Positions 41,271-61,193 of a stretch of DNA of 64,000 nucleotides are shown here, piece after piece. This DNA comes from Terriglobia bacterium (GTDB lineage Bacteria; Acidobacteriota; Terriglobia; 20CM-2-55-15): the NCBI GenBank assembly GCA_965263045.1, contig CBDHGK010000041.1:1909514-1973513 (forward strand), in the 5' to 3' direction. The stretch's first letter is position 1; the number at the start of each line of letters is the position of its first letter. Below the pieces are notes generated by a model. That model was not told the origin of the DNA. It was given only the letters and a program-made list of their open reading frames with translations, and did no database searches. The translations under genes were made by a program, and so were the position numbers.

Positions 41271-43127
41271 ATGGTCATTAAGACGGGACTCCGCGCGGCA
41301 GGCCACCTGGAAGCTTACCGGGGGCGGATTTCACAAAACTTCGAATTGCCGATTCACATCGGTCGTCTGGTTGCGCAGTGGGACGAACCCGAATTCGTCC
41401 CTGCGCCGAACGCATCCCGGATGCGTGACCACGACTACGTCGTCGGCTTGGTCCACAAGGGCGTTGCCGTCGCGTTCCCCATGTGGGTAGCCGACAACTA
41501 TCACGTTATCAATTGTATGATCGCCGGGGATCCCGTGGTCTATACGACTTGCGAGCGCTGCCAGTCGGGGTCGGCTTTTCTGTCGCTTCTTGACGGCAAG
41601 CCGGTCAAGTTCAGTGCTCTCGGAATGTACAACGCCTCGCTGACGATGACCGATCGGGCCGATTTCTTACAGAGGGACGGCAGTCTGTGGCTGCACTATG
41701 AAGGTGTTTGCATCGATGGGAAACATCGCGGGACGTTCCTGGCCCAGATACCGACGTTTCATACCATGTGGGCTGAATGGAAGACGAATCATGCGGATTC
41801 GCTGGTATTGATCGAGCCTCGCGACAGGCACCATCGCGACGCGCGCCACGGGCACGGCCGTGAGGAGTACTTCGCCAGGCCCGGGATGGATCCGCCGCTG
41901 GTTCTGACGATTACCGGTGAGTTCGACGAGCGTTATCCGGAAAACGAGATCGTGCTGGGTGTCAATTCGGACGAGATGACAAAGGCCTATCCGCTGAAAG
42001 AGGTGAAGAAGAGCGGGAGTGTCGTGCATGACCGGATTGGTGACGTGCCTATCGTCGTGCTTGCAGGGCCCCGACCGGAGCAGGTCACCATGGCTGCTTA
42101 TTCTTGCCTGCTCGACGGAAGAGCGCTGACCTTTGGTCTGGACGGAGCGGCCTTCGTGGATCGGGAAACCAGGTCCATGTGGGACATCGAGGGTCTGGCG
42201 CTCGAGGGTCCGCTGGCCGGACGGCGCCTTGAGGCCCTCCGCTGGCAGTACGTCCGCTGGCACGCCTGGTTCTATCCCCACCGCGGCACCCGGCTTTATC
42301 TTCACGAGCGCACACTGCCGGCGTATCCGGGCTCCAATCCGGACGTCGGCTCGTTTCGGCCCATACTCGATGGACTGACCCGCCTGGAGCGGCCGATGAC
42401 TCTCGAGGGTGCGGTGTTCGATCTGAGCCTTCCGCATGAAGCGCCGGAGGGCCTGACCTTGCGTGTCGGCAATGACCGGCTCAATCTGTACCGTTTCAAC
42501 ATGGCCGAAGCCGCCGAGGACTATGTGCAGATGGAGGGAGCCTGGTTCTGTTTCCCGATCAGCAAGAAAGTCGGCAAAAGATACTCCCGCCGCGTGGGTG
42601 TTTTTGTGATCGAGTCGGATCCGGAGAACCAGTATGCCGACCCGTCACAGTTCGTTCGCCTTCCCGACCCGGCCATTGCCTGGTCGGACATCGTCACCGA
42701 CGTGAAATTGGACGAGATCATGCCGCCCGAGCTTCTGGACGGTGCGGGCAAGACGCAACACGGTTTCGCTGGACTCTTCGAGTGTCTGCGGCGGGCAACT
42801 TACGATGTCGTCGAAACCGCTTTTTTACCGCATACACAGTTGCGATTCGGAACATTGAACGCAGTCGCGGCGACGATCAACGCCGATCGCTTCGCCATCT
42901 ACAAGTGCCCCGATGGCGAACCGGATCCTGAAAGAGGTGCCTCATGCGATTCAGATCGATCGCTGGATTCTGCGCTCGATCCCCGCCATCATGTACCGGG
43001 ATCCCATCTACGAAATGGGACAGTTGGCCGAGAGCGAGATCCAGTGGTCCGATCTGCTGTCCGACAAGCGGTTTGCCGCCACCATCCAGTCGTATTGCCA
43101 CGGGTGACGACGGACTCTCCTGGCTAG
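41271..43127 (+). CDS. protein with two tandem DUF3179-like domains
   Basis: AFPMWVADNYHVINCMIAGDPVVYTTCERCQSG and a second repeat KAYPLKEV ... VVLAGP, resembling DUF3179. Confidence 0.5.
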   Translation: MVIKTGLRAAGHLEAYRGRISQNFELPIHIGRLVAQWDEPEFVPAPNASRMRDHDYVVGLVHKGVAVAFPMWVADNYHVINCMIAGDPVVYTTCERCQSGSAFLSLLDGKPVKFSALGMYNASLTMTDRADFLQRDGSLWLHYEGVCIDGKHRGTFLAQIPTFHTMWAEWKTNHADSLVLIEPRDRHHRDARHGHGREEYFARPGMDPPLVLTITGEFDERYPENEIVLGVNSDEMTKAYPLKEVKKSGSVVHDRIGDVPIVVLAGPRPEQVTMAAYSCLLDGRALTFGLDGAAFVDRETRSMWDIEGLALEGPLAGRRLEALRWQYVRWHAWFYPHRGTRLYLHERTLPAYPGSNPDVGSFRPILDGLTRLERPMTLEGAVFDLSLPHEAPEGLTLRVGNDRLNLYRFNMAEAAEDYVQMEGAWFCFPISKKVGKRYSRRVGVFVIESDPENQYADPSQFVRLPDPAIAWSDIVTDVKLDEIMPPELLDGAGKTQHGFAGLFECLRRATYDVVETAFLPHTQLRFGTLNAVAATINADRFAIYKCPDGEPDPERGASCDSDRSLDSALDPRHHVPGSHLRNGTVGRERDPVVRSAVRQAVCRHHPVVLPRVTTDSPG

Positions 43128-44290
43128 GCGGTCACAAACGAACGCATGCGGGCCTGGACAAAATCCTGAAGAAGGCACTGCGTCTGGCACCCGGTGCAGC
43201 GTGTCGGTTCGGGACGTGGGACTCCTGGATCGCGACGCAGGTGACGGATCATCAGGGCTGACGCGCGCTCGGCCAACTCCAGGTACCATTCGCCCGACGG
43301 GGGACGGTGGCCGTGGAACCGGGTACCGGAGGAGGGGCTCCAGACCAGCGGAATGCTTGCAACCCCTTCCTCGGCCAGCTCCTGGACGCCTTCGAGCAGC
43401 AATTCCATCGGCTCGACGCCCGCGACGAAACCCGAGTAGATCCTTCCTCCGGCACCGAAGATCTCCACCGCGACGCGCAATGCCTCTCGATACTTCTCGT
43501 AGCCGAGCCGCTTCTCCTTTCCCGGGCAGACCGCCCGGAAGAACGCCGGATCGAAGCACTCGAGGTTGAAGCCCAGGCCCCTGATTCCCTGGCGATGCAG
43601 CCGCTCCAGATCGCGGAGATTCTCGGGGGGCGTCATGATCGCCGTGCCGGGAAGCTCCGTCATTCCCATCGCTTCCCGCATGCTCTCGAGATAGGTTTCC
43701 AGAATTCCGATTTCCCGTTCCCCGGGGAGAATGCCGCCAGTGATCTCGAAGTGACGGGCCACTCCCGACTCAAAGGCGACACCGAACACCTCGCCCACTT
43801 CCGCCGCCCGCTTTTTCATCATGACTTCGTCGTACTGCTTGAAGGTGTAGTTGAGATTGCAAAAGGCGCACTGCGAGCCGTCCGCAAAGAGCACACAGGC
43901 GTTCGTGTGAGACACGGCAATGCAATCCTCACCGACAAGTTCCGCGATGCTGGTCATGGGCGTGCCGCCCGAAGTCTTCCGGTCGTAAAACGCGGGCCGT
44001 TCGAGCCACTCGAGGGTCGATAGCTCGTGTTGCCCTTTCTCGAGAATCAGCTGGTCTCCCCGACGCTGCACCCGGTACGGAGAGTGCTCGTTGAGCCGGA
44101 CCTGCACGACCGTGCCTTGCGGAAGACGCATCTCCGCCGGACAAGCCTGATCATGATGGAGGTCGAAATCGTATTCGAACAGATGATGCACCTGCTCCTT
44201 GAACTGCGTCCCAACGCCCTCGTAGGCCGCATCGGCAATCTGAATACCATCCACCAGAAGCCGGGTTTTCAACAATAGTTCTTCACGCAT
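43124..44290 (-). CDS. putative radical-SAM-like Fe-S enzyme with noncanonical Cys spacing
   Basis: CVLFADGSQCAFC (Cx9Cx2C) plus C-terminal CTGCQTQC. Start at internal Met at 44290, directly after the stop of the acyltransferase gene. Confidence 0.4.
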   Translation of the reverse strand: MREELLLKTRLLVDGIQIADAAYEGVGTQFKEQVHHLFEYDFDLHHDQACPAEMRLPQGTVVQVRLNEHSPYRVQRRGDQLILEKGQHELSTLEWLERPAFYDRKTSGGTPMTSIAELVGEDCIAVSHTNACVLFADGSQCAFCNLNYTFKQYDEVMMKKRAAEVGEVFGVAFESGVARHFEITGGILPGEREIGILETYLESMREAMGMTELPGTAIMTPPENLRDLERLHRQGIRGLGFNLECFDPAFFRAVCPGKEKRLGYEKYREALRVAVEIFGAGGRIYSGFVAGVEPMELLLEGVQELAEEGVASIPLVWSPSSGTRFHGHRPPSGEWYLELAERASALMIRHLRRDPGVPRPEPTRCTGCQTQCLLQDFVQARMRSFVTA

Positions 44291-44300
44291 GATCGTTCCT

Positions 44301-45224
44301 CTAGGGTAAAGCGAACTTTCTTCTATAACCTCGGGGCGACATATAAGTCGGGTGACGGCGGATGAAGCCCTCGATGCGTTCTGCATAGGCCTGCATCAAA
44401 TGGCTTACCTGCTGAGATCTCGACAACTCTTGTGGACACGACAGCGGCTCCTGAACCTCGATGCGGAAGCGCGCAGTCGGATCGATGCCTGCGAAGCACG
44501 GCAGGATCACGGCCCGGCTCAGCAGCCCAAGCGTGATGCCACCGGTCGGGAACGCGTATTTCTTGCCGCAAATCTCGACGGGCTGCCGGTGTTCGCCCGC
44601 GCCACCATCGCCGGCGATGTTCACGAAGCCGTTTTTCCGAAGGTGATCGTATGCCTTCTTCAAGTACTGCACGCCCAGATCTTCCTGCCCGAACAGCTCA
44701 TCGTCGTCAACATGAAATCGCGCACGACGCCAAAGCGAAAGGCGGTCTTTCAGGGACCTGCTGTCCGATTTCGGCAAGCGCATCGTAAACAGGTGATACA
44801 CCGGGTACTCCTGTGTTCGCAAGTACCACCTCAGAAGCCGTGGGAAGCCGAGATGGCTCACCAGCAGGACGACACCGTTGCCTCCCTTCCGGGCCTCTTC
44901 CAGCCGAGACCACCCGTCGATATCAAGAAACGACTCGAAATCCCGCGCATCCCGCGCCATGATGAGGGAGTTCAGATAGCGCTTGAGCTCCGCGGTCACG
45001 AACAGTTGTTTTGCCAGTCGCTGGTGATCATCCGGGGTCGTGTCATCGGGGAGCGCCTCGCGCAACCAACGATCCGCCATGACTCTCGAGTGACGTTGAA
45101 GACGATATTGCATTCGCCCTCGAAAGCGCAGCCAACGGACAATGAGCGGAAAACGCAAGCGCCCCAGAATCTCGAGCTCGAGACAAAACAACAGATACTT
45201 GGTCAATCGGAATAGGTTTTTCAT
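44301..45224 (-). CDS. LpxL/HtrB-like lipid A biosynthesis acyltransferase family protein
   Basis: N-terminal TM helix, then LVSHLGFPRL ... NIAGDGGAGE pattern of Lip_A_acyltrans. Start at internal Met at 45224. Confidence 0.6.
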   Translation of the reverse strand: MKNLFRLTKYLLFCLELEILGRLRFPLIVRWLRFRGRMQYRLQRHSRVMADRWLREALPDDTTPDDHQRLAKQLFVTAELKRYLNSLIMARDARDFESFLDIDGWSRLEEARKGGNGVVLLVSHLGFPRLLRWYLRTQEYPVYHLFTMRLPKSDSRSLKDRLSLWRRARFHVDDDELFGQEDLGVQYLKKAYDHLRKNGFVNIAGDGGAGEHRQPVEICGKKYAFPTGGITLGLLSRAVILPCFAGIDPTARFRIEVQEPLSCPQELSRSQQVSHLMQAYAERIEGFIRRHPTYMSPRGYRRKFALP

Positions 45225-45225
45225 C

Positions 45226-45930
45226 TCAAGCTCGACGGGCGAGGACCCGCCAGAAGAACGCCTTTGAAACTCGAAGCCATTCGGCGGGCCGGGCCGCGTC
45301 GCGTGAGAGGGCCAGCTCGAGCTCTTGGTGCAGGAGCGATTCGATTCGAAAAGCCCGGAAGAAGTCGCGTACCTCGCCTTCCGATGAGAAATGATGGGGT
45401 ATTCCGGCCTCACCGGCACCATTGAAGACGTGGGGAAACATGCCCGGGCTGATGTACGTGTGTGACTCCACGGATTCGCCCCGACCATACATACGATTCT
45501 CGCGGGACGGCAGCGTCACATAACAAATACCGCCGCCCCGGAGCTTGGAATGCATTAGCGCAACCATCGCCTTCACCCTTTCGGTCGTTCCATGGTAGAT
45601 GCTGTTGAATGCAATCACGGCATCGAAGTACCCATTGGGATAGGGAATATCTTCCATTTCGCCGCACCACAGGGTTGCCGTGCGCCCCTGTGACTCAAGC
45701 CATCGCCTGCATATCGTGATGCCCGAGTCCGAATGATCCATCCCGTAGGCTTCGAAACCCTGACGCGACAGGAGGTCGATATGCCTGCCGATACCGCAGC
45801 CGACGTCGAGGACTCGCGTGATCTCTTCCTTTGCTTTCCAGTCTGAGACCAGTGCCTGAACACCACGGTCCGGTATGCTCCAGAGCCGCTTGGCGCCGTC
45901 GCCTTCCCAGATTTCCTGCCACTGCTCCAT
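45226..45930 (-). CDS. class I SAM-dependent methyltransferase
   Basis: VLDVGCGIGRH (motif I). ATG at 45930 abuts the stop of the upstream ligase gene. Confidence 0.7.
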   Translation of the reverse strand: MEQWQEIWEGDGAKRLWSIPDRGVQALVSDWKAKEEITRVLDVGCGIGRHIDLLSRQGFEAYGMDHSDSGITICRRWLESQGRTATLWCGEMEDIPYPNGYFDAVIAFNSIYHGTTERVKAMVALMHSKLRGGGICYVTLPSRENRMYGRGESVESHTYISPGMFPHVFNGAGEAGIPHHFSSEGEVRDFFRAFRIESLLHQELELALSRDAARPAEWLRVSKAFFWRVLARRA

Positions 45931-45931
45931 G

Positions 45932-47407
45932 TCAGACTCGACCCGGATTTGCCGCACCGCGGAAACCGAGAACCGCCGCCCCCGGCTCGTCTCGAATCTC
46001 GATGAACCGCGGGATCTTGTACTCGGCCAGCCTCCCGCGACAGAATTCGAGTACCTCCTCCGGCGTGCACGCCTCCCGGCACACGAGGGTCGCCTTGACC
46101 GTTTCTCCGCCCAACAGCGAAGAGGCCGGTGAGACGATCGCTTCCCGGACCTTGGGATAGCTCAATAGAACGGCTTCGATCTCCGCGGGATTCACCTTGC
46201 GCCCCGCCACGTTGATGAAACTTCGGCGGCGGCCCGTGACGTAGAGACGGCCTTCGCGGTCGATGCGGCCCGAGTCGCCCGTGCGAATCCATCCGTTTGC
46301 GTCCGGCAGCCGTGTCGGCTCGAGTGGAAGATCGCCCCGGGCCGTCGACATCGACCAGGAGGCCGACGACGCGCTGCTGACGGCGATATCGCCCTCTTCA
46401 TCCTCGGGCGCCGGCTGCCCGGAATCATTCCAGATTTCCACACGAGTGCCCGGTATCGGGCGCCCCACCGAATCGGCAGTGGCCTCAGGATCGCTGTCCA
46501 TATTGACGGTCACCACGCCGGTTTCCGAACTCCCGTAACTCTGACGCAGGACGAGCCCCAGGCGGTCGTGGACCTTGACCCATGTGTCGCGATCGAGAGG
46601 CGCACCCCCGGTAACGCACAACCGCAGGTGTGACAAGTCCACGGGTTCGGGCATCGGCGTGTCGGCGAGAACGGAGAAGATGAACGGCACTGCCGACAAG
46701 AACGTAATGCGATGTCGTTCGAGCAGACGCAGGGTGTCGCGTCGTTCGAAACGTGGTTGCAGCACCAGCGTCGCGCCAGAGGCCAATGACGCCAGCAGCC
46801 CGCTGCAGAATCCCTGGCCGTGGCTCATGGGAATGGCGCACAGAATCCGGTCGTCAGGTGTGAGGCCGAGCGTCGCGCTGTAGGCCGATGACAGGGCTCG
46901 AAGGTTGGCGGACGTCCGGACGACGAGCTTCGGCCTACCCGTCGTCCCCGAGGTGAACAACGCCAGTGCGGGCCCGTCTTCGGTCGGAGATGGAACCGGC
47001 CCGCACGACTCCCTGACGGCTTCCTGTTCGGCCAGAAATAGTCGGTCGAGCACCTGGTCCTGGACGAGTCGACGACACATCGACGACCACCGATCTCCAG
47101 CCAGCAAGGTCCTGCATCGCGTCAGCTCCAGCGCTTCTCTGATCTCGGTCGCCGTCCAGTCCGGACTCAGGGGAACCGCTACGGCTCCGATGCGGGACAC
47201 GGCCAGAAATGCGCGAACGAACGGGGAACCGTTCGGGAGGATCAGAGCCACGGTATCGCCGGACTGGACGCCGCGGGCGGCGAGGTCACCCGAGAACAGC
47301 CCGACCCGTCGGTCAAGCTCTTTCCAAGTGAGCTTTTCGCTGCCGTCGACAACGGACAATGCGCACGGGCGATCGATCGCATGGCGCGAAAGTAGTTCCG
47401 TCGTCAT
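45932..47407 (-). CDS. AMP-dependent synthetase/ligase (fatty acyl-AMP/CoA/ACP ligase)
   Basis: LFTSGTTGRPK and YGSSETG motifs. ATGA overlap with the ACP gene. Confidence 0.8.
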   Translation of the reverse strand: MTTELLSRHAIDRPCALSVVDGSEKLTWKELDRRVGLFSGDLAARGVQSGDTVALILPNGSPFVRAFLAVSRIGAVAVPLSPDWTATEIREALELTRCRTLLAGDRWSSMCRRLVQDQVLDRLFLAEQEAVRESCGPVPSPTEDGPALALFTSGTTGRPKLVVRTSANLRALSSAYSATLGLTPDDRILCAIPMSHGQGFCSGLLASLASGATLVLQPRFERRDTLRLLERHRITFLSAVPFIFSVLADTPMPEPVDLSHLRLCVTGGAPLDRDTWVKVHDRLGLVLRQSYGSSETGVVTVNMDSDPEATADSVGRPIPGTRVEIWNDSGQPAPEDEEGDIAVSSASSASWSMSTARGDLPLEPTRLPDANGWIRTGDSGRIDREGRLYVTGRRRSFINVAGRKVNPAEIEAVLLSYPKVREAIVSPASSLLGGETVKATLVCREACTPEEVLEFCRGRLAEYKIPRFIEIRDEPGAAVLGFRGAANPGRV

Positions 47408-47691
47408 CCGACGCTTTCTTGCTTCGCCTCGGGCGTGTTCCCCAGCTCCCGATGAACGAGCTCGGCGAGCGTGTGCAGTGACTCGAAATGCTCGATGGTC
47501 AAGAGGCTGTCATCGAGAACGATTCCGAATTCGTGCTCGATCGTGACGACGAACTCCAAGAGCGCAACGGAGTCGAGGGAGAGCCCCTTTTTCACCAGAG
47601 CGACATCGGCGTCGATATTGCCAGGATTCGCGTCCCTCAAGACCTGCTGCAAGACGGTCTTGAGACGTTCTTCAACTGTTTTGATTTCCAA
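47404..47691 (-). CDS. acyl carrier protein
   Basis: GLSLDSVALLEFV phosphopantetheine-attachment motif. TTG start preceded by aggagg. Confidence 0.7.
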   Translation of the reverse strand: MEIKTVEERLKTVLQQVLRDANPGNIDADVALVKKGLSLDSVALLEFVVTIEHEFGIVLDDSLLTIEHFESLHTLAELVHRELGNTPEAKQESVG

Positions 47692-47959
47692 GTTTGCTCC
47701 TCCTGCGGGCCGCTCGAAGCGATTGTCCTGGCGGGATTCTAGAATACTTTTTGGTTAGCCCCCAGGATTACTAATCGAGTATAGGAGAAAGGCGCGCCTT
47801 CCCGTTATAGAATCTGGTCGGAATGGCCACTTGTGGGGTTAGGTCGCAGTCCCCGGTGGTGGGGTCGAATAAATCAACGGACTGAACCGCGCTGCGTTTG
47901 ACTGCGTGACACTGAAAACTCTGGCACACTAACTGGAGGTACGACGGTAAGACCACTCG

Positions 47960-50114: not shown

Positions 50115-51926
50115 ATGAAAATCACAGACCGCGTGTTCTGCGTCGGCTTGAACAAGACCGGCACGACCTCGATTAAGCGGTGCTTTACCGTCCTTGGCAT
50201 CCAACCCATCGCCCCGAGCGCCAAGCACGACTGGAGAGTACTGCGGGCGGTCTTTGACCGTAACGACTATGGCCCAGCGTTGAGGCTGGCCGAAAAATAC
50301 CGCGCTTTTGAGGATCGCCCGTGGAATGTGTGGCAAATGTACCGCAAGCTTGACGAGCGCTTTCCCGGCAGCCGCTTTATCCTTACCAAACGCGATCCCG
50401 AGCGCTGGTGGGGCTCTGTGGAGCGGTGGCTGTCCTATACCAAGCCGCGAATGGCGACTGTTTATCGCCAGCATCTCGCCGCGAAAAACCTCCTCATGGG
50501 TTCGATGATTGAAGCCTACGAGCGCTACAATTGCGAGGTCACAGAGTACTTTTCCGGGCGGGACGACCTGCTCGTAATGGAACTGGAAAAGGAGCAGGGC
50601 TGGGAGCGGATCTGCCGTTTCCTGGGACGGGCGGTTCCGCCTGTAGAATTCCCTCATGCTAACCGACAGTACTATGACGAGCGGGACCTGAAGAAGGACC
50701 GGGTCAAGCGACACCGCAACACCTCGCCATCGAAAACCGGAACATCGACTCCACCTTGTCTTTACTGCGGAGAAACTGCGACCACCCATCTAAAGCCGCC
50801 ACGGCGTTGGATGCCCCAGGTGCTGCATGCACGCATCCGCAGCAACCATATCAAGACTGTAGAGAGGGACGCCAGGCGCTTGCGGGCGGGCCCCGAGCGG
50901 ATCGAACTGTTGCGGCGGCAATGGCCCAATCTGCGTTTGGACGACATGGCGGTGGTGTGCAGCTTTTTCAATCCGGGAGAGGATGCCGGTGCCCTCGAGC
51001 GCTACTATCAGTTTCGGCAGGCGATCGAGCGCAGCCACCTCCCGCTGCTGACGGTCGAACTGGCCATTGGCCTGCAGCCCTATCAGCTTGGAACCCCTAA
51101 TGCAAACCTCTTGCAAGTGCGCTCCGCCGATGCGATGTGGCATCGAGAGCGCCTGCTGAATCTGGGTATCGAGGAGCTATTGCGCCGCGGGTTCCGCAAG
51201 ATCGTCTGGTTGGACAGCAACATCGTTTTCGAGGACAGCGAGAGCTGGCCGTGGGCTGTCGCTGCTGGGCTCGAGCAATCCGCCGTCTGTCAGGTTTTCA
51301 GCCATGTGCTGATTCATCGGCATCGGGGAGAGCCCGTGGCCGCCGGGATCGGCGCAGTCAAGTACTTCGAAGAGACGCAAGAATACGTCAACCAGACCGC
51401 TCTCCGCCCAAGCGCCCGCTGGCCGGCAGGCCGGCCACCCGGATATGCCGGTTTCGGCTGGGCAGCCAACGCCGATGTCCTGCGGAAGGTGCTGCCCTAC
51501 GACCGGGCGATTGCAGGCGGCGGTGATCGCATGCTCTTTGCCGCCGGCCACGGCTATAGCGACGCCTGGTTCCGCTCGATCACCAAACAACTGACCCACT
51601 ACCGCTTCCCGCGGTGCGGTGCCTGCAGGCACCGTATCGCAGCCCCGGAGTACACATGGCACTACGCGACGTGGGCGCAACGGTGGGCGGCGGCGGTCGA
51701 GAACGGCGTGGGCTACGTGGAACAGATAGTTCGGGATTTTTCGGGCGTCGCGAGCCCCGGGGACCCCACAGAGATTGCCAGCGTCCTGCTCCGGCACCGG
51801 TATGATCCCGAACGGGATATCAAGTCCAACGAACTTGGCTGTTTGGAGTGGGCCTCCGAACGGCCGTCACTGCAACGGGATGTTGCCCATTACATCATGG
51901 CATCCGAGCAGCGCGCCACGGGCTGA
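50115..51926 (+). CDS. sulfotransferase-domain protein (N-terminal) with uncharacterized ~350 aa C-terminal domain
   Basis: GLNKTGTTS (PAPS 5'-phosphosulfate-binding-like) and Stf0-like N-terminal domain. C-terminal half unknown. Confidence 0.5.
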   Translation: MKITDRVFCVGLNKTGTTSIKRCFTVLGIQPIAPSAKHDWRVLRAVFDRNDYGPALRLAEKYRAFEDRPWNVWQMYRKLDERFPGSRFILTKRDPERWWGSVERWLSYTKPRMATVYRQHLAAKNLLMGSMIEAYERYNCEVTEYFSGRDDLLVMELEKEQGWERICRFLGRAVPPVEFPHANRQYYDERDLKKDRVKRHRNTSPSKTGTSTPPCLYCGETATTHLKPPRRWMPQVLHARIRSNHIKTVERDARRLRAGPERIELLRRQWPNLRLDDMAVVCSFFNPGEDAGALERYYQFRQAIERSHLPLLTVELAIGLQPYQLGTPNANLLQVRSADAMWHRERLLNLGIEELLRRGFRKIVWLDSNIVFEDSESWPWAVAAGLEQSAVCQVFSHVLIHRHRGEPVAAGIGAVKYFEETQEYVNQTALRPSARWPAGRPPGYAGFGWAANADVLRKVLPYDRAIAGGGDRMLFAAGHGYSDAWFRSITKQLTHYRFPRCGACRHRIAAPEYTWHYATWAQRWAAAVENGVGYVEQIVRDFSGVASPGDPTEIASVLLRHRYDPERDIKSNELGCLEWASERPSLQRDVAHYIMASEQRATG

Positions 51927-53232: not shown

Positions 53233-53799
53233 ATGACCCACTCCACTGACTCCAGCCGCAGAGCCTTCGAAAAATACAAGACCGACGTAGGCCGGAAGGC
53301 GGATCGAAGCCACGGTGCCCCTGATGGGCGCACTCCGGTGCCGGTCCGATCCCTGCGCCAGTTGTTTTTCGAATTCTGGCGACTCGTTGGGCGCGAACGC
53401 GGACCGGTTGTGTTGGCCCTCGCCGCGCTGACGCTGGCGACCGTTCTGGGCCTCATTCCGCCCGCTGCCACCAAGTTCATCGTCGATTATGTCCTCGGTG
53501 AGCAGCCCATACCCGAACGGTGGCAATCGTATCTGCAGCTGCCAGAGGATCCCTTCCGGCTTCTGATATTAACCATTGTCGCCGTCACGCTCGTTGCGGG
53601 CCTGCGAATCGCTGTCCACACCTGGAGCGACTGGCAGGCGACGCGATCCGCTAAACGCTTACACCTGTCAGTTCGTTTGAAGGTATTTGCACACGCCGTG
53701 CGGCTGCCACTGCACCGGGTTGATGAGCTGAAGTCCGGTGGTGCGGCGAGCATCCTGCGCCAGGACGCCGGCAGCGTCGGCGACTTGATTCACGGCATG
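53233..53799 (+). pseudogene. ABC exporter (MsbA-like, fused TMD-NBD), 5' fragment interrupted by IS256-family copy 3
   Basis: TM helices. Reading frame runs ... DLIHGM into the IS terminus. Confidence 0.7.
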
Positions 53800-55240
53800 G
53801 AGTCAAGCCCATTCTTAGTTGAAACTCTCCACGGCTCACGATGGGTCATGCAACCTTCTTCTTCGATCTCGTCGACGTCTTCGCCTCAATTTTCAGCTCT
53901 CGCTGGAGGGCTTCGCGGAGCTTTGGAAGATGACGGTAGCCGATCACCTTCCTCAGGCGCGGTTCGATGTCGATGAGCGCCGTCGCCAACCAGCGTTGCC
54001 GCTGACTCGAGTTCTTCCAATGATCGACCTTCGCACACCTTTCCTCGACAAGGGCATTGACCGATTCCAGGCAATTCGTCGTCTTGAACGAACGGCCCAA
54101 GACCCCGTACACGCCGAGCCGATGCAACGTGAGGGTCTCTTCCAGGCCTTCCTCAAGGCTCGCAGCCCCCGATTGGTTTCGCTCCTCGAGCTCTCCATGG
54201 AGCTCTCCGAGCGCCGCCCGAGCTTCGTCGTACTCCGGGCGCTCGTAGGCCCGCTGCAGCCGGCGTCGCCACACGGCTTGCTCGGTCTTCGATAGGTATC
54301 TCACGACGTTCTCGCGTTTGTGCCATTGGCAGCGTTGGACCAGGGCTCGATTCCTGAATGCCTTCTTGACCGCCGCCCGCAGACCTTTGCCGCCGTCGAC
54401 AATCACCAGCACGCCTTCAGAGATGTCCAGGCCCCGCTCCATCAACGAACGGAGAAACGGAGTCAGCACTTGCTCGTTCTCCGTGTCGGTCTCCACGAAG
54501 CCCAAGAAGCGTTTGTCGCCCGAAAGCGTGACGCCCAGGGCCACTACCATCAGGGCGTCGGCAAACGCCTTCCCGTCCAGGAAGATCGCCACGACGTCCT
54601 CGCCACTCAGATCCCGCTCCTGCATCTCCCGAAGTTTCGCGGCACTCGCCTGGACGAATCCTCGAGACACCGTCGAACTCGACAGTCCGATCGCTCCCGG
54701 AATCGCTTCAGCGGCCGATTCATAGTTCCGGCAGGAGATCCCATACAGCACACGTCTGAGCAGTAGCTCGTTCACCGCGCCACCCGGACTGAGTTCCTCG
54801 TAGGTCCGAAGCGGAATCTCCCCGCCCGCCACGCTGCGCACTCGAGGCACCCGAACCGGCACCCGCTGGCCACCCAGCCCCACGGTCCCCGGATTGCTCC
54901 CGTGTCGCCGGCCCCGCAACGCCGCCTCCTTTCGTGCGTATCGCTCACCCGCCAACGACTTCACTTCCTCGTCGAGCAACTCCTCCACGTGCATCAACCC
55001 CAGTGGGATCAACGCCCGAATCATCTCCACCTTCGAGTCCAATTCCAGTCCCGAGTATTCCTCCCGGCTCAGGACCTCGACCTCACCCAGCACACGCGAC
55101 TTCTTGCGTTTCTTTACCGAACGTAACAGACTCCTCATCTCGGCTCCTTTCTCTTACAGGCTTGATGTTGTTTCTTCCAATACCATCAAACCATGGGGTT
55201 TGGAGCCGTTTCAATTTCCAACTAAGATTGGCACACATTC
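53800..55240 (-). mobile_element. IS256-family insertion sequence, copy 3 (1441 bp) with 8-bp TSD acggcatg (53792-53799 and 55241-55248)
   Basis: Identical to copies 1 and 2. Direct orientation relative to copy 1. Confidence 0.9.
53846..55138 (-). CDS. IS256-family transposase, 430 aa
   Basis: Identical protein. Confidence 0.9.
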   Translation of the reverse strand: MRSLLRSVKKRKKSRVLGEVEVLSREEYSGLELDSKVEMIRALIPLGLMHVEELLDEEVKSLAGERYARKEAALRGRRHGSNPGTVGLGGQRVPVRVPRVRSVAGGEIPLRTYEELSPGGAVNELLLRRVLYGISCRNYESAAEAIPGAIGLSSSTVSRGFVQASAAKLREMQERDLSGEDVVAIFLDGKAFADALMVVALGVTLSGDKRFLGFVETDTENEQVLTPFLRSLMERGLDISEGVLVIVDGGKGLRAAVKKAFRNRALVQRCQWHKRENVVRYLSKTEQAVWRRRLQRAYERPEYDEARAALGELHGELEERNQSGAASLEEGLEETLTLHRLGVYGVLGRSFKTTNCLESVNALVEERCAKVDHWKNSSQRQRWLATALIDIEPRLRKVIGYRHLPKLREALQRELKIEAKTSTRSKKKVA

Positions 55241-56598
55241 ACGGCATGCTTTACAACCCATGGCGGACGGTTGTGCAACTGGTCGGGAGCCTGTGCGTCC
55301 TGGCGTTCGTGGATTGGCAACTGCTGGTCGGCGCCCTCCTGCTGATCCCATTGACGGCCCTGTCCCATCGGACCTGGATCAGCCGGATTCGGCCGGAGTA
55401 CCGCAGGATTCGGCGTCAACGCCAATTGATCGACGGGAGTGCAACCGAGGTCTTTGGTGGGATGCGGGTTGTCCGTGCGTTTGGACGGCAGCGCCGTGAG
55501 ACCGGTCGCTATATGCGGGACATCCATCTGGTGGGCCGCCAGGAGTTGCATGTCTGGTGGTGGGAGCGCCAGGTCGGAATTGTCTGGGATGCATTGATCC
55601 CCATGTTGAGCGCAGCGCTGTTGTGCTATGCCGGCTACCAGGTGCTGGAAGGTACGCTGACCCTGGGCGACATGATGATGTTCCTCGTGTACCTGTTGAT
55701 GCTGCTGCAACCGCTCGCCATCCTGGCCCAGAGCGCTGTTCGATTCCAGAACAGCCTTTCGGGGCTGGACCGTGTCCTGGACCTGCTGCTGGAACCCCAC
55801 GAGCTGTCCCAGACGCCGAATCCGGCCTTTGTCTCCAAGGACAAGGCTGCCGGTACGGTGGAACTGGAGTCTGTCAGTTTTCTGTATCCAGGGTCGGACA
55901 CCCCTGCGGTCCGTAACATCGATCTGCGCGTCGAATCCGGGCAAACGCTGGCGCTGGTTGGCCCCAGCGGATCCGGCAAGACTACGATCTGCAATCTGAT
56001 CGCGCGTTTCTACGATCCCACTTCGGGTCGGATCCTGCTCGATGGGCGTGACCTGCGGGAGATCGATGTCGAAAGTTTAAGGGCTCTGCTGGGAATCGTC
56101 GAACAGGACGTCTTTCTATTCGACGGAACGATTCGCGAGAATATCGGTTACGCCAGGGGAAAAGCCACGGATGAAGAAATTCGCAATGCTGCGCACGTCG
56201 CCAATGCCACGGAATTCATCGACCGGCTGCCTGGAGGTCTGGAGACCGTCATCGGCGAACGTGGCGTGCGTCTCAGTGGTGGTCAGAGGCAGCGCCTTGC
56301 GATCGCCCGGGCGGTCCTGGCAGACCCGCGAATCCTGATTCTCGACGAGGCAACCAGCAACCTGGACACCGAGAGTGAACGCCTGATCCAGCTCAGTTTG
56401 GAAAGGTTGATCAGAGATCGGACCTGTTTCGTAATCGCTCACCGTCTGAGTACGATCGCACATGCCGACAGAATCGTCGTGCTGGATAACGGACGTATCA
56501 TCGAATCCGGCAGCCATGTATCGCTCCTTGCCGATTCGGGCCGCTATCGGGAGATGGTCACCTCGCAGTTGACGACGGTTCTCGGCGACGAAATATAG
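55241..56598 (+). pseudogene. ABC exporter, 3' fragment (TM helices 3-6 and nucleotide-binding domain)
   Basis: GPSGSGKTT (Walker A), LSGGQRQR (ABC signature), ILILDEATS (Walker B). Frame continuous with 53233-53799 once the IS is removed. Confidence 0.75.
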
Positions 56599-56636
56599 TA
56601 GTCATCGTTGCCTGAACCGGGACGGAGTGAGGGCCT

Positions 56637-57956
56637 TCAGCTACCTGACTGAAATATTGACGATAGCTGTTTCCAGCGATCGTTTCCGCCCGAAATGGGC
56701 CCGGACAGTTGCACCAACACCTTTGCGAGGGCGTAAGATGCCAATAGCATAAGGACCGGTTCGATGGGGAACCGAAAGCGCCCTCGATCCGACCAGGTCA
56801 GGTAGAAGGGCAGAGGCGAGGTCACTACATACAAAATCAGAAGGTGTGCCAGGCGTTCCCGGCGTGCAAACCAGGCTCCGACTATGCCCAATACGAGTAT
56901 GGGAAAATAAGCAGCGCCGGCGACGAACCGCTCGAAACTGGATGAACTTGCCCCCAGTTGAGTCCAGAAACGCACGACTCGATTCCGAGTGCGCATGAGA
57001 AAACGTTCAGGGTATTCCCGCAAAAGACCCACAACCTGGGAGCCGAGGGAGGTGCTGGGTTCGGACTCTATTTCTACGAGATCCGGAAGGTCGATGCCCA
57101 TCGCGGAGCGTGCACGTGAAGAGAAATTGCCCGCCAACACTTCCCGTGCGAAATTGGAACGGATAAAGACGAACTGGTCAAAGACGACATAGTTGCGGAT
57201 GAGCCAGGGGGTCATGACCGCTGCACAGCACGCCATGATCGTAACTGATCTCCATAGTCGAAATCGCAAGGCGATTTCGTGCCTCCCCAGGAACCACAGC
57301 AAAGCGAATGGGTAAAACGCGATTATGACCGGATTGACCAGGGTCGCGAGTCCGCAAAGCAACCCGAGCACGAGGCTTCGAGAGACCGTCGTCCGTTTTG
57401 CGAGTTCGAGCGTTTGCTGAAGGATCAACAGACCGAGCAGAGTGAGCAGGGTGCCGTACTCGATCTTCTGGACTGAAAAGTGAATCGAGGCCGGGTAGAA
57501 GGCGAAGATCAGGGCTGCCAGCAGTCCCGGCCAGTCGCTGTTGAAAACCAGCTTCCCCAGTCTGAACAGCACATAGCAACTCAAAATCGAGAGAACAATC
57601 TGAAACAACTCCAGGGCGACGGCGGCCGAAACCGTATATGAACCGAAAATCCAGAAAGCCGCAGCAACAATGACGGGGTTCACCGGGGCTTTCCATGAGG
57701 TCGGTACGGGCTGTTCGGGCTGAATGGTGTTGCCCGGGGGGCCGACGGCTCGCCCAAGCACTGGCCACGCAAACCCGTCACCGTTGGCGAGAGAGTAAGC
57801 GATTTCACCTTCCTCGTTCCCGAAGGCGAGGTCAGACGGGAATTCCCATGTCTGCAACAGCAGCATCGTGGATACACGCGCTGCAAAGGCCAACAGCAGG
57901 ATTGCCAGAAGAATTTTGCGAGTTCGAGCCTTGCCGTCAAGGGTTTGGTCTGTCAT
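56637..57956 (-). CDS. GT-C fold glycosyltransferase-like membrane protein (ArnT/PMT_2-like)
   Basis: About 12 TM helices with loop pattern FGNEEGEIAYSLANGDGFAWP. Tentative. Confidence 0.45.
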   Translation of the reverse strand: MTDQTLDGKARTRKILLAILLLAFAARVSTMLLLQTWEFPSDLAFGNEEGEIAYSLANGDGFAWPVLGRAVGPPGNTIQPEQPVPTSWKAPVNPVIVAAAFWIFGSYTVSAAVALELFQIVLSILSCYVLFRLGKLVFNSDWPGLLAALIFAFYPASIHFSVQKIEYGTLLTLLGLLILQQTLELAKRTTVSRSLVLGLLCGLATLVNPVIIAFYPFALLWFLGRHEIALRFRLWRSVTIMACCAAVMTPWLIRNYVVFDQFVFIRSNFAREVLAGNFSSRARSAMGIDLPDLVEIESEPSTSLGSQVVGLLREYPERFLMRTRNRVVRFWTQLGASSSSFERFVAGAAYFPILVLGIVGAWFARRERLAHLLILYVVTSPLPFYLTWSDRGRFRFPIEPVLMLLASYALAKVLVQLSGPISGGNDRWKQLSSIFQSGS

Positions 57957-58280
57957 AAGCTACGTCAATCTACCACGACTGCCGCAGTACCGACTCCGGA
58001 CAATTTTCAGAGTTTCGCGGTGGCCCTCACCTCGATTTATTGGGATTCTCAGGCTTCGCATAGGACGTAGACTTCCGAAATTGGCCGTGCTTCGGCAATC
58101 CACCACAACCGATGAGATTGAGTGTGCCCCCGCCCCATGGAGCGCGAACCCCGCTAGTTTTTGTTATCGATGCCGGATTGTTTCATCTGAAAACCTCAGG
58201 ACTTGCGCGAGGGGAAACTCCCCGGCGTCACCAATCTTTCGGAGCGTGAGTCCATGCGGATGCCCGTATAATCGTCAGAG

Positions 58281-59312
58281 ATGTTCGATTCAGCTAGAAC
58301 CGTAGCCATCGAATCGGTTGTGGCTCTGGGCATTCTTTTGGTCGTCAGCGGGTGTCAGACCGAGGTGCTACACCCGGGCACCCCCTCCGGCCTCAGGGTC
58401 GAACGATTAGCGGGCAACCCCATTATCCGTCCTGAAATGCTTCCAGATAGACTGGGAGAGAACATCAACGGTCCTTCACTGATTCGTGTCCCGGAATGGA
58501 TAGAGGGCGCACTCGGCCGTTACTATTTGTACTTCGCGCATCACCACGGATCTTTCATCCGATTAGCTTACGCGGACGACCTGGCCGGGCCCTGGACGAT
58601 TCATGAACCCGGATCTCTTCACGTCGATCACACAGCCTGCAATGAGCTTGAGGGCACCCGGTTTGACCAGAATATGCATATCGGATCGCCCGAAGTACAG
58701 GTCGACGACGAATCACGTCAGATCAGGATGTACTTCCATTGTCCCGTGTTCGTTGAAGGTACTGACCCTCCTAACGACCGAAGACGACAACGGACATTTG
58801 TTGCGACTTCCACGGACGGCCTCAGCTTTCGGTCCTATCCGGAGCGTCTGGGAAGAGGTTATTTCAGGGTCTTTCGCTGGGCTGGATTCTATTACTCAAT
58901 CAGCTACGGCGGAATGTTTTATCGATCCAACGACGGACTGAGTGGATTCAGCCCGGGGACTGAGGTGCTCAATGCCAATACGCGACATTTTGCGGTAATA
59001 GTTAGAAACGACAGGCTGCTCGTGTTCTATACATTGAGAGGCGATAATCCTGAAAGGATCGTGGTATCTGATATCGATCTGAGTTCAGACTGGACCACCT
59101 GGTCTATAAAAGATCCCCTTGTCGTCCTTGAACCGGAATTCGACTGGGAAGGCGGGAACCTGCCGGCAGTGGCCTCGGCTGGGGGGATTGTAAGGGAGCC
59201 CGTTCGCCAGCTGCGTGATCCGGCCATTTTTGAAGACGCGGGCCGGACCTATTTGCTCTACAGCACTGCCGGCGAGTCTGGAATTGGCATCGCCGAGATC
59301 TACCTGAATTGA
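58281..59312 (+). CDS. hypothetical lipoprotein, possibly beta-propeller glycoside-hydrolase-like
   Basis: LVVSGC lipobox. Weak resemblance to GH43-like N-terminal motifs. Confidence 0.35.
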   Translation: MFDSARTVAIESVVALGILLVVSGCQTEVLHPGTPSGLRVERLAGNPIIRPEMLPDRLGENINGPSLIRVPEWIEGALGRYYLYFAHHHGSFIRLAYADDLAGPWTIHEPGSLHVDHTACNELEGTRFDQNMHIGSPEVQVDDESRQIRMYFHCPVFVEGTDPPNDRRRQRTFVATSTDGLSFRSYPERLGRGYFRVFRWAGFYYSISYGGMFYRSNDGLSGFSPGTEVLNANTRHFAVIVRNDRLLVFYTLRGDNPERIVVSDIDLSSDWTTWSIKDPLVVLEPEFDWEGGNLPAVASAGGIVREPVRQLRDPAIFEDAGRTYLLYSTAGESGIGIAEIYLN

Positions 59313-59449
59313 TTTTGATGGCACCAGGGGTGCCGTATCGAAATACAGCAGACTCAAGATTGTGAATCCACTCGATACGGACCCGATTAAGTACGTGTTC
59401 TATAGTATTTTATCGGATACTGCGTGAAGTGTTCCGACGGGCCACACCC

Positions 59450-59476
59450 AACAAAAAAGGCCACCTTCCGGTGACC
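59450..59476 (-). terminator. Rho-independent terminator (7-bp stem, GGAA loop, U6); duplicate of the tRNA terminator
   Basis: aaaaaaggccaccttccggtgacc read on the minus strand gives ggucaccggaagguggcc + UUUUUU. Confidence 0.5.
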
Positions 59477-59807
59477 TTAGCTGCCTGCTGACGTTCCCCC
59501 TGTTTGGAGATCAGCCAAGACCGGGACAGCATTGCGTGATAGCCCGTCAGATTGGTCCGATCAGAAAAGATTCTTAGTTTTTCAAGGGAATCCACGCGAA
59601 ATGCTCTGACGGGCTTTATTGTCACAGCGGCGGAAGTCTCCCAGGTGCGCGGGAGAGCGTACGGTGGAGACGTTGGGACTGACCCTGTCGGGATATGCTC
59701 AAAGGCGTAGCGTGAAGCATGATAGTCTGAGCCTCCACCCGCAGAATAGGTCAAAAGGTCATTTCGATGGGGATTCCGTCAAGTGAACTTGTCACCGTGA
59801 ACACACC

Positions 59808-61193
59808 ATGAAGCAGCGTCGTCGGAAGGCACTATTCGGTGTCATGGCGATCGTCTGTTCAATCGGCATCTCGTTGGCCATTGCGGAAGGGGCACTTCGG
59901 CTGCTTGGCTTTGAATACAACTATGACCTGAAGATCGAGCACACCGGAGAGGAGTGGCGTGACTACCTCATGTTCGAAGAACAAATGTTCGAGCCGGACC
60001 CAATCTTGCTGTGGAGGCCCAGGAACTCAGACGACGACTATGTCCCGTTCAACAGCTATGGGTATAGAGGTCGGGAAGTCGATAGGACGAAGGGCGACGA
60101 TGAGCTGAGAGTGCTCGCTGTGGGAGATTCGAATACCTTAGGTCCGGCTGGATACTCGTGGCCGGGTTTCCTGCAGGAGGTCCTGGATTCTTCGTGTCCA
60201 AACATCGTCCCGACGGTGTTAAACGCTGGCGTCTACGGCTATTCTTCATTTCAAGGCGTGCGTCGCTTCGAAGAGGGCTTGCAGTTTGCCCCTGACGTTG
60301 TCCTGGTCTCGTTCGGATGGAATGACGCCATTACAACCACGAATTTGCCCGACAAATACTATGGCGAAAGGGCTTTGCGGTTTTCATCGATCAAACGTTT
60401 TCTGGCCCGGAAAAGCCGAATCTATCATTTGGTACGCGCCGCGTCGGACAGGTTGCTCGGTGAATCTTTACTCACGGCCGAGACGTCCGGCATTGCTCCC
60501 CGTGTCACCGAGGCAGACTATCGAAGCAACCTCACGTCGATTGTCACGGCATCGCTGGAAAGAGGAATACTGCCGATTCTCCTGACCCGTCCAAACGTCG
60601 TCAATCTGGACTCGGAGTTCGCTCCGGTGTTGGCGTGGCGGCTCAACCTGACAAATTACAATAAAATCGTTGGTGAGGTGGCGCGTCAGTTCGAGATTCC
60701 GCTAGTCGATGCATACGAGATTTTTGCCGGTCTACCCCAACAATTCCTTGACGAAAATCACCTGACGGAATCCGCTGCGGGCCACCTGGCCGGACGAGTT
60801 TATTCGGAGATCAACGCGAATTTCGATGACTGTGCGGAATACACGGCACCAGGGGAAACCAGCCGTCGGGCCGGGTCAGCTCCAGCAGCCGATGTGACGT
60901 ATGTGGATTCAGATTCAATCCGGTTGAGAATCGAGCCACTGGATGTCGTCGCTGGCCGAGATTCCTATTGGCTGTGGCTGGAAGGCATAGAGTCCGGAAA
61001 CTCTGCAGTGACGATCGAATACCGGCTGAACGGTGGCAGGGTTGAACGATTTCAGGCCGAGTTGGATGCCGACGGCCGAACCCGCTACTACGTCTCCCCT
61101 CTCACAAGGAAGGGCGTATATGAATTCGTCGCCTTTCAGCCATCGGACTATGACTCTTTCGTTCGATCTGACGTAAACCTTAGGGTCCGGTAG
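59808..61193 (+). CDS. SGNH/GDSL-family hydrolase with N-terminal TM helix and C-terminal extra domain
   Basis: LAVGDSNT (block I, Ser nucleophile). Internal DENH-like terminal block. Confidence 0.6.
   Translation: MKQRRRKALFGVMAIVCSIGISLAIAEGALRLLGFEYNYDLKIEHTGEEWRDYLMFEEQMFEPDPILLWRPRNSDDDYVPFNSYGYRGREVDRTKGDDELRVLAVGDSNTLGPAGYSWPGFLQEVLDSSCPNIVPTVLNAGVYGYSSFQGVRRFEEGLQFAPDVVLVSFGWNDAITTTNLPDKYYGERALRFSSIKRFLARKSRIYHLVRAASDRLLGESLLTAETSGIAPRVTEADYRSNLTSIVTASLERGILPILLTRPNVVNLDSEFAPVLAWRLNLTNYNKIVGEVARQFEIPLVDAYEIFAGLPQQFLDENHLTESAAGHLAGRVYSEINANFDDCAEYTAPGETSRRAGSAPAADVTYVDSDSIRLRIEPLDVVAGRDSYWLWLEGIESGNSAVTIEYRLNGGRVERFQAELDADGRTRYYVSPLTRKGVYEFVAFQPSDYDSFVRSDVNLRVR

Follow-up and report, generated by a model that had tools for sequence, protein, structure and literature searches.

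Two separately conserved gene cassettes in a putative mosaic locus for envelope-glycoconjugate tailoring

To our knowledge, few sulfated glycoconjugates have been described from bacteria other than mycobacteria, rhizobia, and cyanobacteria, and the role for which planctomycetes are chiefly known is the breakdown of sulfated glycans, not their production. In mycobacteria, GT4 enzymes build a glycolipid on which PatA, an enzyme of the LpxL family, acylates a sugar with the use of acyl-CoA. Nit1C gene clusters harbor, together with a radical S-adenosylmethionine (SAM) gene, partner genes for a GNAT protein, an AIR-synthase-like protein, and a flavoprotein. In the AlmEFG system of Vibrio cholerae, a ligase first charges a carrier protein with glycine, which an LpxL-related enzyme then passes on to lipid A (PMC4278540). 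The cyanobacterial xss cluster, which serves the sulfated exopolysaccharide synechan, is a polymerization system of the Wzx/Wzy/polysaccharide co-polymerase (PCP) type with eight glycosyltransferases (PMC8205485). For radical SAM proteins, RadicalSAM.org lists a CX8CX2C spacing of the cysteines in several megaclusters, with no function given (PMC9477430). The region considered here lies in a 64-kb stretch of DNA from a Terriglobia bacterium (contig CBDHGK010000041.1; the whole stretch is denoted the window) and was initially annotated as one candidate biosynthetic cluster for a sulfated, acylated glycoconjugate. Judged by sequence comparison, it is a composite of two separately conserved cassettes, termed A and B, which are arranged back to back around a 268-bp divergent spacer. 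It is best filed as a mosaic locus for envelope-glycoconjugate tailoring made from known superfamilies, with a Cx8CxxC radical SAM cassette and a sulfotransferase-GT-A fusion as its uncharacterized parts.

The gene content is established. Every gene on the initial list is present at 43124-61193, as revealed by the open reading frame (ORF) map and by profile searches against Pfam and NCBIfam, and the families named there are real. It is the unity of the cluster that did not hold: the set of sulfotransferase, GT4, ABC exporter, and lipoprotein genes (~17 loci) and the acyl carrier protein (ACP) module (~12 loci) occur apart. Orthologous clusters elsewhere without the ACP/ligase module, regarded by the initial annotation as speaking against its proposal, are thus in part what is found, namely the ~17 loci of cassette B.

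Loci of cassette A were gathered via radical SAM homologues from genomes and metagenomes. The five core genes, encoding the carrier protein, an adenylating ligase, a methyltransferase, an LpxL-like acyltransferase, and the radical SAM protein, occur together in every locus with a radical SAM identity of at least 60% and sufficient flank, with their order varying; the gene order in the window differs from that of the closest relatives. Loci with a named source come from Rubripirellula and Fuerstiella (80-81%), from Bryobacteraceae and Solibacter (62-65%), and from a metagenome-assembled genome labeled 'Geobacter'. By this co-occurrence, cassette A is a conserved unit. The radical SAM clade is rare, as it falls into a single cluster at 50% identity in a set of 1.84 billion representative proteins; its next relative is 45% identical, and no partner gene accompanies the distant relatives (25-41% identity) from Chlorobi, Clostridia, Chloroflexi, and Asgard archaea. 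Around the core, two accessory sets are encountered. One combines GT4, P450, and pyruvyl-transferase-like genes, with or without a 2-oxoglutarate oxygenase and a desaturase (Acidobacteria, Rubripirellula, and L161). The other consists of a nitrilase-superfamily protein and two B12-radical SAM enzymes, which join the ACP/ligase genes in L076 (3592-9151), L163 (16-6307), L009, and L010. The nitrilase is reminiscent of Nit1C, a cluster with a distantly related radical SAM enzyme. L163 encodes a chorismate pyruvate-lyase as well, an Rv2949c-like protein that, by its family, hints at an aromatic substrate derived from 4-hydroxybenzoate. L012 lacks accessory genes, and the window harbors no homologue of them, including the GT4 of cassette A, the P450, and the pyruvyl transferase.

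Cassette B is recognized by the fusion gene. The fusion family comprises ~600-aa proteins, 36-54% identical, from Deltaproteobacteria, Cyclobacteriaceae, Halioglobus, and others. Among the ~17 loci with a near full-length copy, the fusion is accompanied by an ABC exporter in 10, by a homologue of the 343-aa lipoprotein in eight (33-44% identity; L081, L089, L090, L092, L094, L102-L104), by an orthologue of the GT4 in five (L079, L081, L082, L091, L095), and by a homologue of the 356-aa second sulfotransferase-like protein in three (43-58% identity; L081, L095, L160). The window GT4 is 40-58% identical to its five counterparts and shows just 30% identity, over 151 aa, to the GT4 accompanying cassette A elsewhere; it therefore belongs to cassette B and not to the GT4 type of cassette A. 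None of the ~17 loci carries genes for the ACP, the methyltransferase, the LpxL-like protein, or the radical SAM protein; L089 shows a weak generic match to the ligase at the contig edge. By these shared neighbors, cassette B is a conserved unit, too. The GT2, GT-C, and SGNH hydrolase genes are missing from all ~17 loci, and no GT2 orthologue adjoins the fusion gene there. A GT-C homologue is found in no locus of either cassette, and the SGNH hydrolase is absent from every related locus. The GT-C and SGNH genes, originally listed as cluster members, are hence conserved with neither cassette, and the membership of both is uncertain. The 90% clusters of the GT-C protein and of the fusion each contain a member from a 10,873-bp ENA contig, possibly the same one. 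The features of the region are compiled in Table 1.

Table 1. Genes and elements of the two cassettes and their surroundings (window coordinates), with the supporting matches
Feature	Coordinates	Strand	Evidence or remarks
Cassette A	41271-47691		DUF3179, carrier protein, ANL ligase, methyltransferase, LpxL-family transferase, variant radical SAM
DUF3179 protein, 618 aa	41271-43127	+	PF11376, E = 2.6e-39
Variant radical SAM enzyme (predicted), 388 aa, last operon gene	43124-44290	-	NF045502 'variant_rSAM', 380 bits vs cutoff 125
LpxL/PatA-superfamily acyltransferase, 307 aa	44301-45224	-	PF03279, 47.4 bits vs gathering score 22.3
Class I SAM methyltransferase, 234 aa	45226-45930	-	Methyltransf_25, E = 3.7e-17
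ANL-superfamily adenylating ligase, 491 aa	45932-47407	-	AMP-binding, E = 1.7e-77
Stand-alone carrier protein, 95 aa, first operon gene	47404-47691	-	PP-binding, E = 1.2e-7; GLSLDS serine motif
Loci with all five cassette A genes (12)			L001, L007, L009, L010, L012, L014, L074, L076, L078, L161, L162, L163
Divergent intergenic region, 268 bp	47692-47959		Separates the operons of cassettes A and B
Cassette B	from 47960	+	GT4, sulfotransferase-GT-A fusion, second sulfotransferase-like protein, ABC exporter, 343-aa lipoprotein; GT2 included in the proposed pathway
GT4 glycosyltransferase, 379 aa	47960-49099	+	Glycos_transf_1, E = 1e-15
GT2 glycosyltransferase, 291 aa	49190-50065	+	Glycos_transf_2, E = 8e-33; hydrophobic C-terminal segment
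Sulfotransferase-GT-A fusion (predicted), 603 aa, cassette B signature gene	50115-51926	+	PF17784 (Sulfotransfer_4), E = 1e-29, residues 6-184
Second sulfotransferase-like protein, divergent, 356 aa	52017-53087	+	PF13469 (Sulfotransfer_3), 30 bits vs gathering score 27
ABC exporter 5' fragment, N-terminal transmembrane part	53233-53799	+	Weak ABC_membrane match
IS256-family element, 1441 bp; transposase gene 53846-55138	53800-55240	-	Transposase_mut, E = 6e-36; NF033543, 207 bits vs cutoff 150
ABC exporter 3' fragment, rest of transmembrane part and nucleotide-binding domain	55249-56598	+	ABC_membrane, E = 1.8e-16; ABC_tran, E = 3e-35
GT-C membrane glycosyltransferase, 439 aa	56637-57956	-	PMT_2, 30 bits vs gathering score 26
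Predicted lipoprotein, 343 aa	58281-59312	+	Lipobox VSGC
Membrane-anchored SGNH/GDSL hydrolase, 461 aa	59808-61193	+	Lipase_GDSL_2, E = 6.5e-17

The core genes of cassette A form a tight operon on the minus strand, as initially described. The ACP and ligase genes overlap by ATGA, and the subsequent junctions measure 1 nt (ligase-methyltransferase), 1 nt (methyltransferase-LpxL-like), and 10 nt (LpxL-like-radical SAM), the latter gap harboring a GAGGAA ribosome-binding site. For the LpxL-like, methyltransferase, and radical SAM genes, the longest ORF begins ahead of the true start. The ligase presumably charges the carrier protein encoded next to it. MenE, feruloyl-CoA synthetase, FadD13, and a gramicidin adenylation domain resemble it to about the same degree, and the 60 best-scoring solved chains listed for it include no fatty acyl-AMP ligase. 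Since the similarity is spread evenly over the ANL types, a fatty acid substrate is not established, and the activation of a fatty acid, a central step of the initial annotation, is unproven for this generic ANL enzyme. In L001, the ligase is short (395 aa). In all related loci, a methyltransferase homologue (50-58% identity) directly precedes the radical SAM gene. The LpxL-like protein, presumed to transfer the carrier-bound acyl group, shows a phosphatidylinositol mannoside (PIM) acyltransferase as its top NCBIfam match, with 35 bits versus a cutoff of 209. The LpxL, LpxM, and PatA models altogether reach 18-35 bits at best versus cutoffs of 209-491; with scores below the equivalog cutoffs, a true LpxL orthologue was rejected. 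In its homologue from L001, a member of the acidobacterial-type lineage (11194-11997), SKVG stands in place of SHLG, so that Lys replaces the presumed catalytic His.

The radical SAM protein shows three cysteines (C132, C141, and C144) and a CPGK motif that are invariant in 20 homologues. The spacing is Cx8CxxC instead of the canonical CX3CX2C, and the score on the Pfam model PF04055 (22) lies below the gathering score of 29.5. An AlphaFold 2 (AF2) model (pLDDT 86) is closest to the solved folds of PylB, LipA, HydG, ThiH, and HydE (E = 1e-7 to 1e-5). Going by the variant three-Cys motif and the matching modeled fold, the protein is a member of the radical SAM superfamily, and in this model the likeness to the five enzymes is one at the level of the fold alone. 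Neither the radical SAM profile nor the LpxL-like protein found a significant match in sequence searches against the PDB.

A sixth gene probably belongs to cassette A. The gene for the DUF3179 protein converges with the radical SAM gene, and both overlap by 4 bp in their stop codons (43124-43127). Homologues with 62-71% identity are located between the radical SAM and ACP genes in L007, L074, L161, and L162, and on the short contig L008 a homologue directly follows the radical SAM gene. The location inside the cassette in the planctomycete-type loci assigns, with some probability, the window gene to cassette A, of which DUF3179 is probably a planctomycete-specific member, judged by gene neighborhood. 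In the relatives, the gene is co-directional with the cassette, whereas it is convergent here, which argues for a rearrangement of cassette A in this genome. A literature search for DUF3179 returned only selenoprotein surveys.

The signature protein of cassette B was called "Stf0-like" in the initial annotation. The sulfotransferase fold stood, the family did not: Stf0 (PF09037) matches neither this protein nor the 356-aa protein, in which only PF17784 and PF13469 are detected (Pfam, E <= 0.01), and the sulfotransferase is fused to a GT-A domain. The layout comprises an N-terminal sulfotransferase of the 3'-phosphoadenosine 5'-phosphosulfate (PAPS) type, a four-Cys linker, and, at the C-terminus, a domain of GT-A fold that harbors a WLDxD motif; residues 201-603 show no Pfam match. 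The motifs NKTGT (5'-PSB) and TxRDP (3'-PB), WLDxD, and the four-Cys site are nearly invariant in 40 homologues, from which an AF2 model was obtained (pLDDT 86.6). In Foldseek searches, the N-terminal domain is close to SgdX2 (E = 1e-10, TM 0.75) and matches Cpz8 with bound 3'-phosphoadenosine 5'-phosphate (PAP) and Schistosoma sulfotransferases as well, and the C-terminal domain of ~330 residues matches B4GalT1, B4GALNT1, GalNAc-T2, GfsA, and TarS (E = 1e-4 to 1e-3, with low TM values of 0.3-0.4). The literature search for SgdX2 yielded grant numbers only. According to motifs and modeled fold, the protein is a PAPS-type sulfotransferase whose C-terminal domain adopts a GT-A glycosyltransferase fold with a DxD motif. 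The GT-A domain (50880-51926; FNP...WLDxD...GGD) occurs also alone, in P0113 (336 aa), and in P0115 it is fused to a GT2 instead of a sulfotransferase (37% identity over 338 aa). In P0118 and P0119, an inositol-monophosphatase/CysQ-type PAPS 3'-phosphatase domain (PF00459) is fused to a PF17784 sulfotransferase, an arrangement that suggests a possible link between sulfation and the removal of PAP in this family. In the 356-aa protein, GRHKxAST and IIREQFD are conserved and lie in register with the PAPS motifs of the fusion family, albeit weakly (hhalign E = 0.003, probability 10%). The 343-aa lipoprotein shows weak similarity to GH43 and GH130 alone and is possibly a beta-propeller, as far as its sequence indicates. 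PDB sequence searches with the 343-aa and 356-aa proteins returned nothing significant.

The exporter gene of cassette B is split by an insertion sequence (IS) of the IS256 family, which is flanked by an 8-bp target duplication, ACGGCATG. In silico removal of the IS and one copy of the duplication joins both gene fragments in frame and yields a single ORF of ~638 aa. MsbA, the type proposed initially, is indeed the best NCBIfam match of the rebuilt protein (TIGR02203, 455 bits), but the score lies below the cutoff of 602 and the HepA and NdvA models follow close behind; with this score under the equivalog cutoff and the gene interrupted, a true MsbA orthologue or flippase was rejected. Two more copies of the element, 99.8-99.9% identical, are located at 5764-7204 (+) and 9818-11258 (-), each with its own 8-bp target duplication, GGGTTATC and ACGGATCG, respectively, and all three copies show similar inverted ends. 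The high identity of the copies argues for a recent insertion into the exporter gene, and three copies with own duplications indicate that the element has recently transposed in bursts in this genome. With its exporter gene interrupted, the pathway of this strain is probably impaired. An IS4-like transposase gene (12558-13973, -; DDE_Tnp_1_4, E = 9e-159) and an IS630-like transposase gene (21587-22672, +; DDE_3 and HTH domains) raise the number of insertion sequences to five in the window, which is unusually IS-rich.

The chemical steps, the acceptor, and the coupling of the cassettes are what we infer from these assignments. By analogy with AlmEFG, cassette A would be a carrier-protein-dependent acyl-transfer module. 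The ligase would adenylate a putative carboxylic acid and charge the dedicated carrier with it, the acid or the tethered acyl group would be modified by the methyltransferase and the Cx8CxxC radical SAM enzyme, and the LpxL-family enzyme would move this group to a hydroxyl or amine of a membrane-associated glycosylated acceptor, a step that may be likened to those of AlmG with glycyl-AlmF and of PatA on PIMs. In cassette B, a short glycan would be assembled on a lipid acceptor by the GT4, the GT2, and the GT-A domain on the cytoplasmic side of the membrane, and the two sulfotransferases would add sulfate from PAPS to it. The MsbA-like half-transporter would then flip the product across the inner membrane, and the lipoprotein would act on it outside the cytoplasm. 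Cassette B would thereby stand in for the tailoring set of the relatives, i.e. GT4, P450, and pyruvyl transferase, in part with a sulfotransferase. A Wzx/Wzy exopolysaccharide locus was rejected, as the Pfam matches at 40-64 kb include no Wzx, Wzy, PCP, or priming glycosyltransferase, which points to a small lipid-linked product. Likewise, no ketosynthase or polyketide genes are present in the region (Pfam, genes at 40-64 kb), and an aryl-polyene or flexirubin cluster was rejected because ketosynthase/chain length factor, ketoreductase, and dehydratase genes are absent from the region and from all cassette A loci examined; in this point, the initial annotation was right.

That both cassettes act on one product, a sulfated, glycosylated, and unusually acylated envelope glycolipid or glycoconjugate, is the reading preferred here, and we give it an even chance. 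The evidence comes from the two closest relatives of cassette A. L161 (radical SAM 84% identical) shows on one strand the order GT4, P450, pyruvyl transferase, Sulfotransfer_3 (PF13469, 117 bits), LpxL, methyltransferase, radical SAM, DUF3179, ACP, and ligase. In L162 (76% identical), the cassette is followed by convergent GT2 and GT4 genes and a stand-alone 205-aa Sulfotransfer_4 (PF17784, 78 bits) just downstream. These two loci overturned the first view, drawn from the separable distributions, that the sulfotransferases are wholly unlinked to the ACP module, and the sulfotransferases and glycosyltransferases next to cassette A in them make a shared acylated, glycosylated, and sulfated product plausible. 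To this extent the product of the initial annotation stands, whereas the single inherited cluster, Stf0, the fatty acid, and the intact exporter do not. Counting the window, sulfotransferases are found at three of five planctomycete-type loci with usable flanks; they are of three non-orthologous kinds, which speaks for recruitment on several occasions and against a common origin. In a crude density control, composed of loci of other taxa and covered by tblastn only, 58 unrelated loci (828 kb in total) showed no sulfotransferase match. Next to cassette A, a glycosyltransferase is found in eight of ~16 distinct loci. As read from these gene neighborhoods, the pattern fits a fixed core with exchangeable sets for glycosylation and anionic tailoring (pyruvyl transferase, sulfotransferases). 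Several points weigh against a joint product. No sulfotransferase is found in the planctomycete-type loci L007 (17 kb) and L074 (11 kb), and cassette A of the Acidobacteria and of the nitrilase/B12-radical SAM variant has none. Cassette B occurs in ~17 loci of other lineages without cassette A genes nearby; this separate occurrence implies that each cassette can work without the other. The window as a whole contains neither PAPS-synthesis genes nor a priming glycosyltransferase. In the LpxL-like protein, the check for the HX4D/E motif revealed the His of SH(L/V)G in four of five cassette A homologues (Lys in L001) and Arg or Gln, not Asp/Glu, at position +5; without the acidic residue and with Lys for His in one lineage, catalysis may be atypical. 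DHLR and GDG are invariant as well, and their residues could, to judge from the alignment, replace the missing acidic one. Furthermore, the adjacency of the cassettes could be accidental in this IS-rich, rearranged window.

Taken further, this last point leads to two unrelated pathways that became chance neighbors through rearrangement: cassette A would make or modify a lipid or natural product of its own, with glycosyltransferases encoded elsewhere or not required, and cassette B would independently make a sulfated glycolipid or oligosaccharide. We consider this a real possibility, though a clearly lesser one than even. The ~17 cassette B loci without cassette A genes, the lack of cassette B orthologues in ~15 cassette A loci, the orthology of the window GT4 to that of cassette B, the altered gene order of cassette A, and the five insertion sequences all agree with it. 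It leaves aside that the closest relatives carry sulfotransferases and glycosyltransferases beside cassette A, once within one co-directional string, that both operons share a single divergent control region, and that cassette A of the window lacks its usual glycosyltransferase and anionic-tailoring partners. An unlikely reading is the model of the initial annotation, a sulfolipid-1 analogue in which a fatty acyl-AMP ligase charges the ACP, the LpxL-like enzyme transfers the acyl group to a glycan made by GT2 and GT4, and Stf0-like enzymes sulfate it. An adenylating enzyme, a carrier, an acyltransferase, glycosyltransferases, sulfotransferases, and an exporter are all present, and some cassette A loci elsewhere carry desaturase-type genes. 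Yet the ligase is no closer to fatty acyl-AMP ligases than to enzymes activating aryl or amino acids, the chorismate pyruvate-lyase of one variant locus hints at an aromatic acid, no role is left for the invariably linked methyltransferase and radical SAM enzyme, a Stf0 match and genes of the Pks2, PapA, or MmpL type are missing, and the exporter is disrupted. A remodeling of lipopolysaccharide (LPS) appears still more doubtful, i.e. an AlmEFG-like cassette A that attaches a small, modified acid or amino acid in ester linkage to lipid A or core, with cassette B adding sulfated sugars to the core or O-chain and an MsbA paralogue flipping the modified lipid A-core. The ligase, carrier, and LpxL-family transferase mirror the architecture of AlmE, AlmF, and AlmG, MsbA is the best match of the rebuilt exporter, and the nearest radical SAM folds include the amino-acid enzymes PylB, ThiH, and HydG. 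However, the exporter fails the MsbA cutoff with HepA and NdvA nearly as good, the lipid A acyltransferase models of NCBIfam all remain far under their cutoffs, no further lipid A or core genes lie in the window, and the recurrent partners of cassette A (P450, pyruvyl transferase, desaturases, nitrilase, and B12-radical SAM enzymes) resemble natural-product tailoring.

The surroundings offer few regulatory hints. The divergent region contains neither a convincing consensus promoter nor an Rfam element, and scans for promoters and terminators found fewer sites than in shuffled sequence. The sole Rfam match is a tRNA, with no riboswitch; this tRNA-Met (CAT) gene is located at 61466-61537 (-), 273 bp past the SGNH hydrolase gene. 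The G+C content falls to 0.54-0.56 across 58-62 kb, compared with ~0.59 elsewhere, and together with the tRNA gene this drop could mark an island boundary. Farther upstream, a 602-aa protein with an adenylate/guanylate cyclase catalytic domain is encoded at 3094-4902 (+), and many ORFs from 0.4 to 34 kb show no Pfam match at all.

If a sulfated, acylated envelope glycolipid is indeed produced along this route, it adds to the cell-surface chemistry of planctomycetes. More tentatively, cassette A might represent an undescribed carrier pathway, in which the radical SAM enzyme and the methyltransferase make a new acyl type on the ACP and the LpxL-family enzyme esterifies it onto an anionic (sulfated or pyruvylated) envelope glycolipid of planctomycetes and acidobacteria; this would be a new class of surface lipids, with tailoring modules, the fusion cassette included, that are swappable between lineages. 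Experimental handles are provided by the rare five-gene radical SAM cassette, by the widespread sulfotransferase-GT-A fusion with a glycosyltransferase domain that no Pfam model covers, and by the apparent exchange of anionic tailoring sets, either pyruvyl transferase or sulfotransferases, about a constant core. The locus also advises caution: what looks like one neat cluster can be a mosaic of modules with separate inheritance, and here an IS has broken one of them. The literature search found no paper on the five-gene combination or on the fusion family.

Among the described systems, the xss cluster shares with this locus the pairing of several glycosyltransferases with two sulfotransferases of distinct subfamilies. 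It differs in its polymerization machinery: Wzx, Wzy, PCP, OPX, and a priming glycosyltransferase are all lacking here, and the MsbA-type half-transporter suggests a small lipid-linked product, not a polymer. The radical SAM enzyme of Nit1C (TIGR04043, MSMEG_0568 family) belongs to the same broad variant family, with 118 bits and the Cx8CxxC spacing, and one cassette A variant harbors a nitrilase-superfamily gene; this score is, however, far under the TIGR04043 cutoff of 304, and the partner genes, here ACP, ligase, and LpxL-like, are wholly different. The parallel to the assembly of sulfolipid-1 (Stf0, FadD23/Pks2, PapA1/PapA2, MmpL8), drawn initially, persists in its logic of activating an acid, acylating a sugar, sulfating, and exporting, but not in its components: PF17784 and PF13469 proteins are found in place of Stf0, an LpxL-family enzyme in place of PapA, and an ABC exporter in place of the RND-type MmpL, without a polyketide synthase, and no gene at 40-64 kb matches the Pks2, PapA, or MmpL families (Pfam). 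The mycobacterial PIM system of PimA/PimB' and PatA is comparable in three respects: a GT4 is often paired with an acyltransferase of the LpxL/PatA family, the PIM model is the top NCBIfam match, and both systems fit the acylation of a sugar of a membrane glycolipid. The match is very weak, though, a dedicated ligase and carrier are encoded here, and inositol or phosphatidylinositol genes are not. With AlmEFG, finally, cassette A shares one operon without a ketosynthase that encodes an ANL-type ligase, a small carrier, and an LpxL-superfamily transferase (here 44301-47691; the trio occurs in ~12 loci). Unlike in AlmEFG, this trio never occurs without a linked SAM methyltransferase and Cx8CxxC radical SAM enzyme, glycine is not indicated, and no lipid A model reaches its cutoff; the likeness is one of architecture. 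AlmEFG nevertheless offers the nearest characterized logic for cassette A, and by analogy with it the roles in ligation, carriage, and transfer are proposed for the three proteins.

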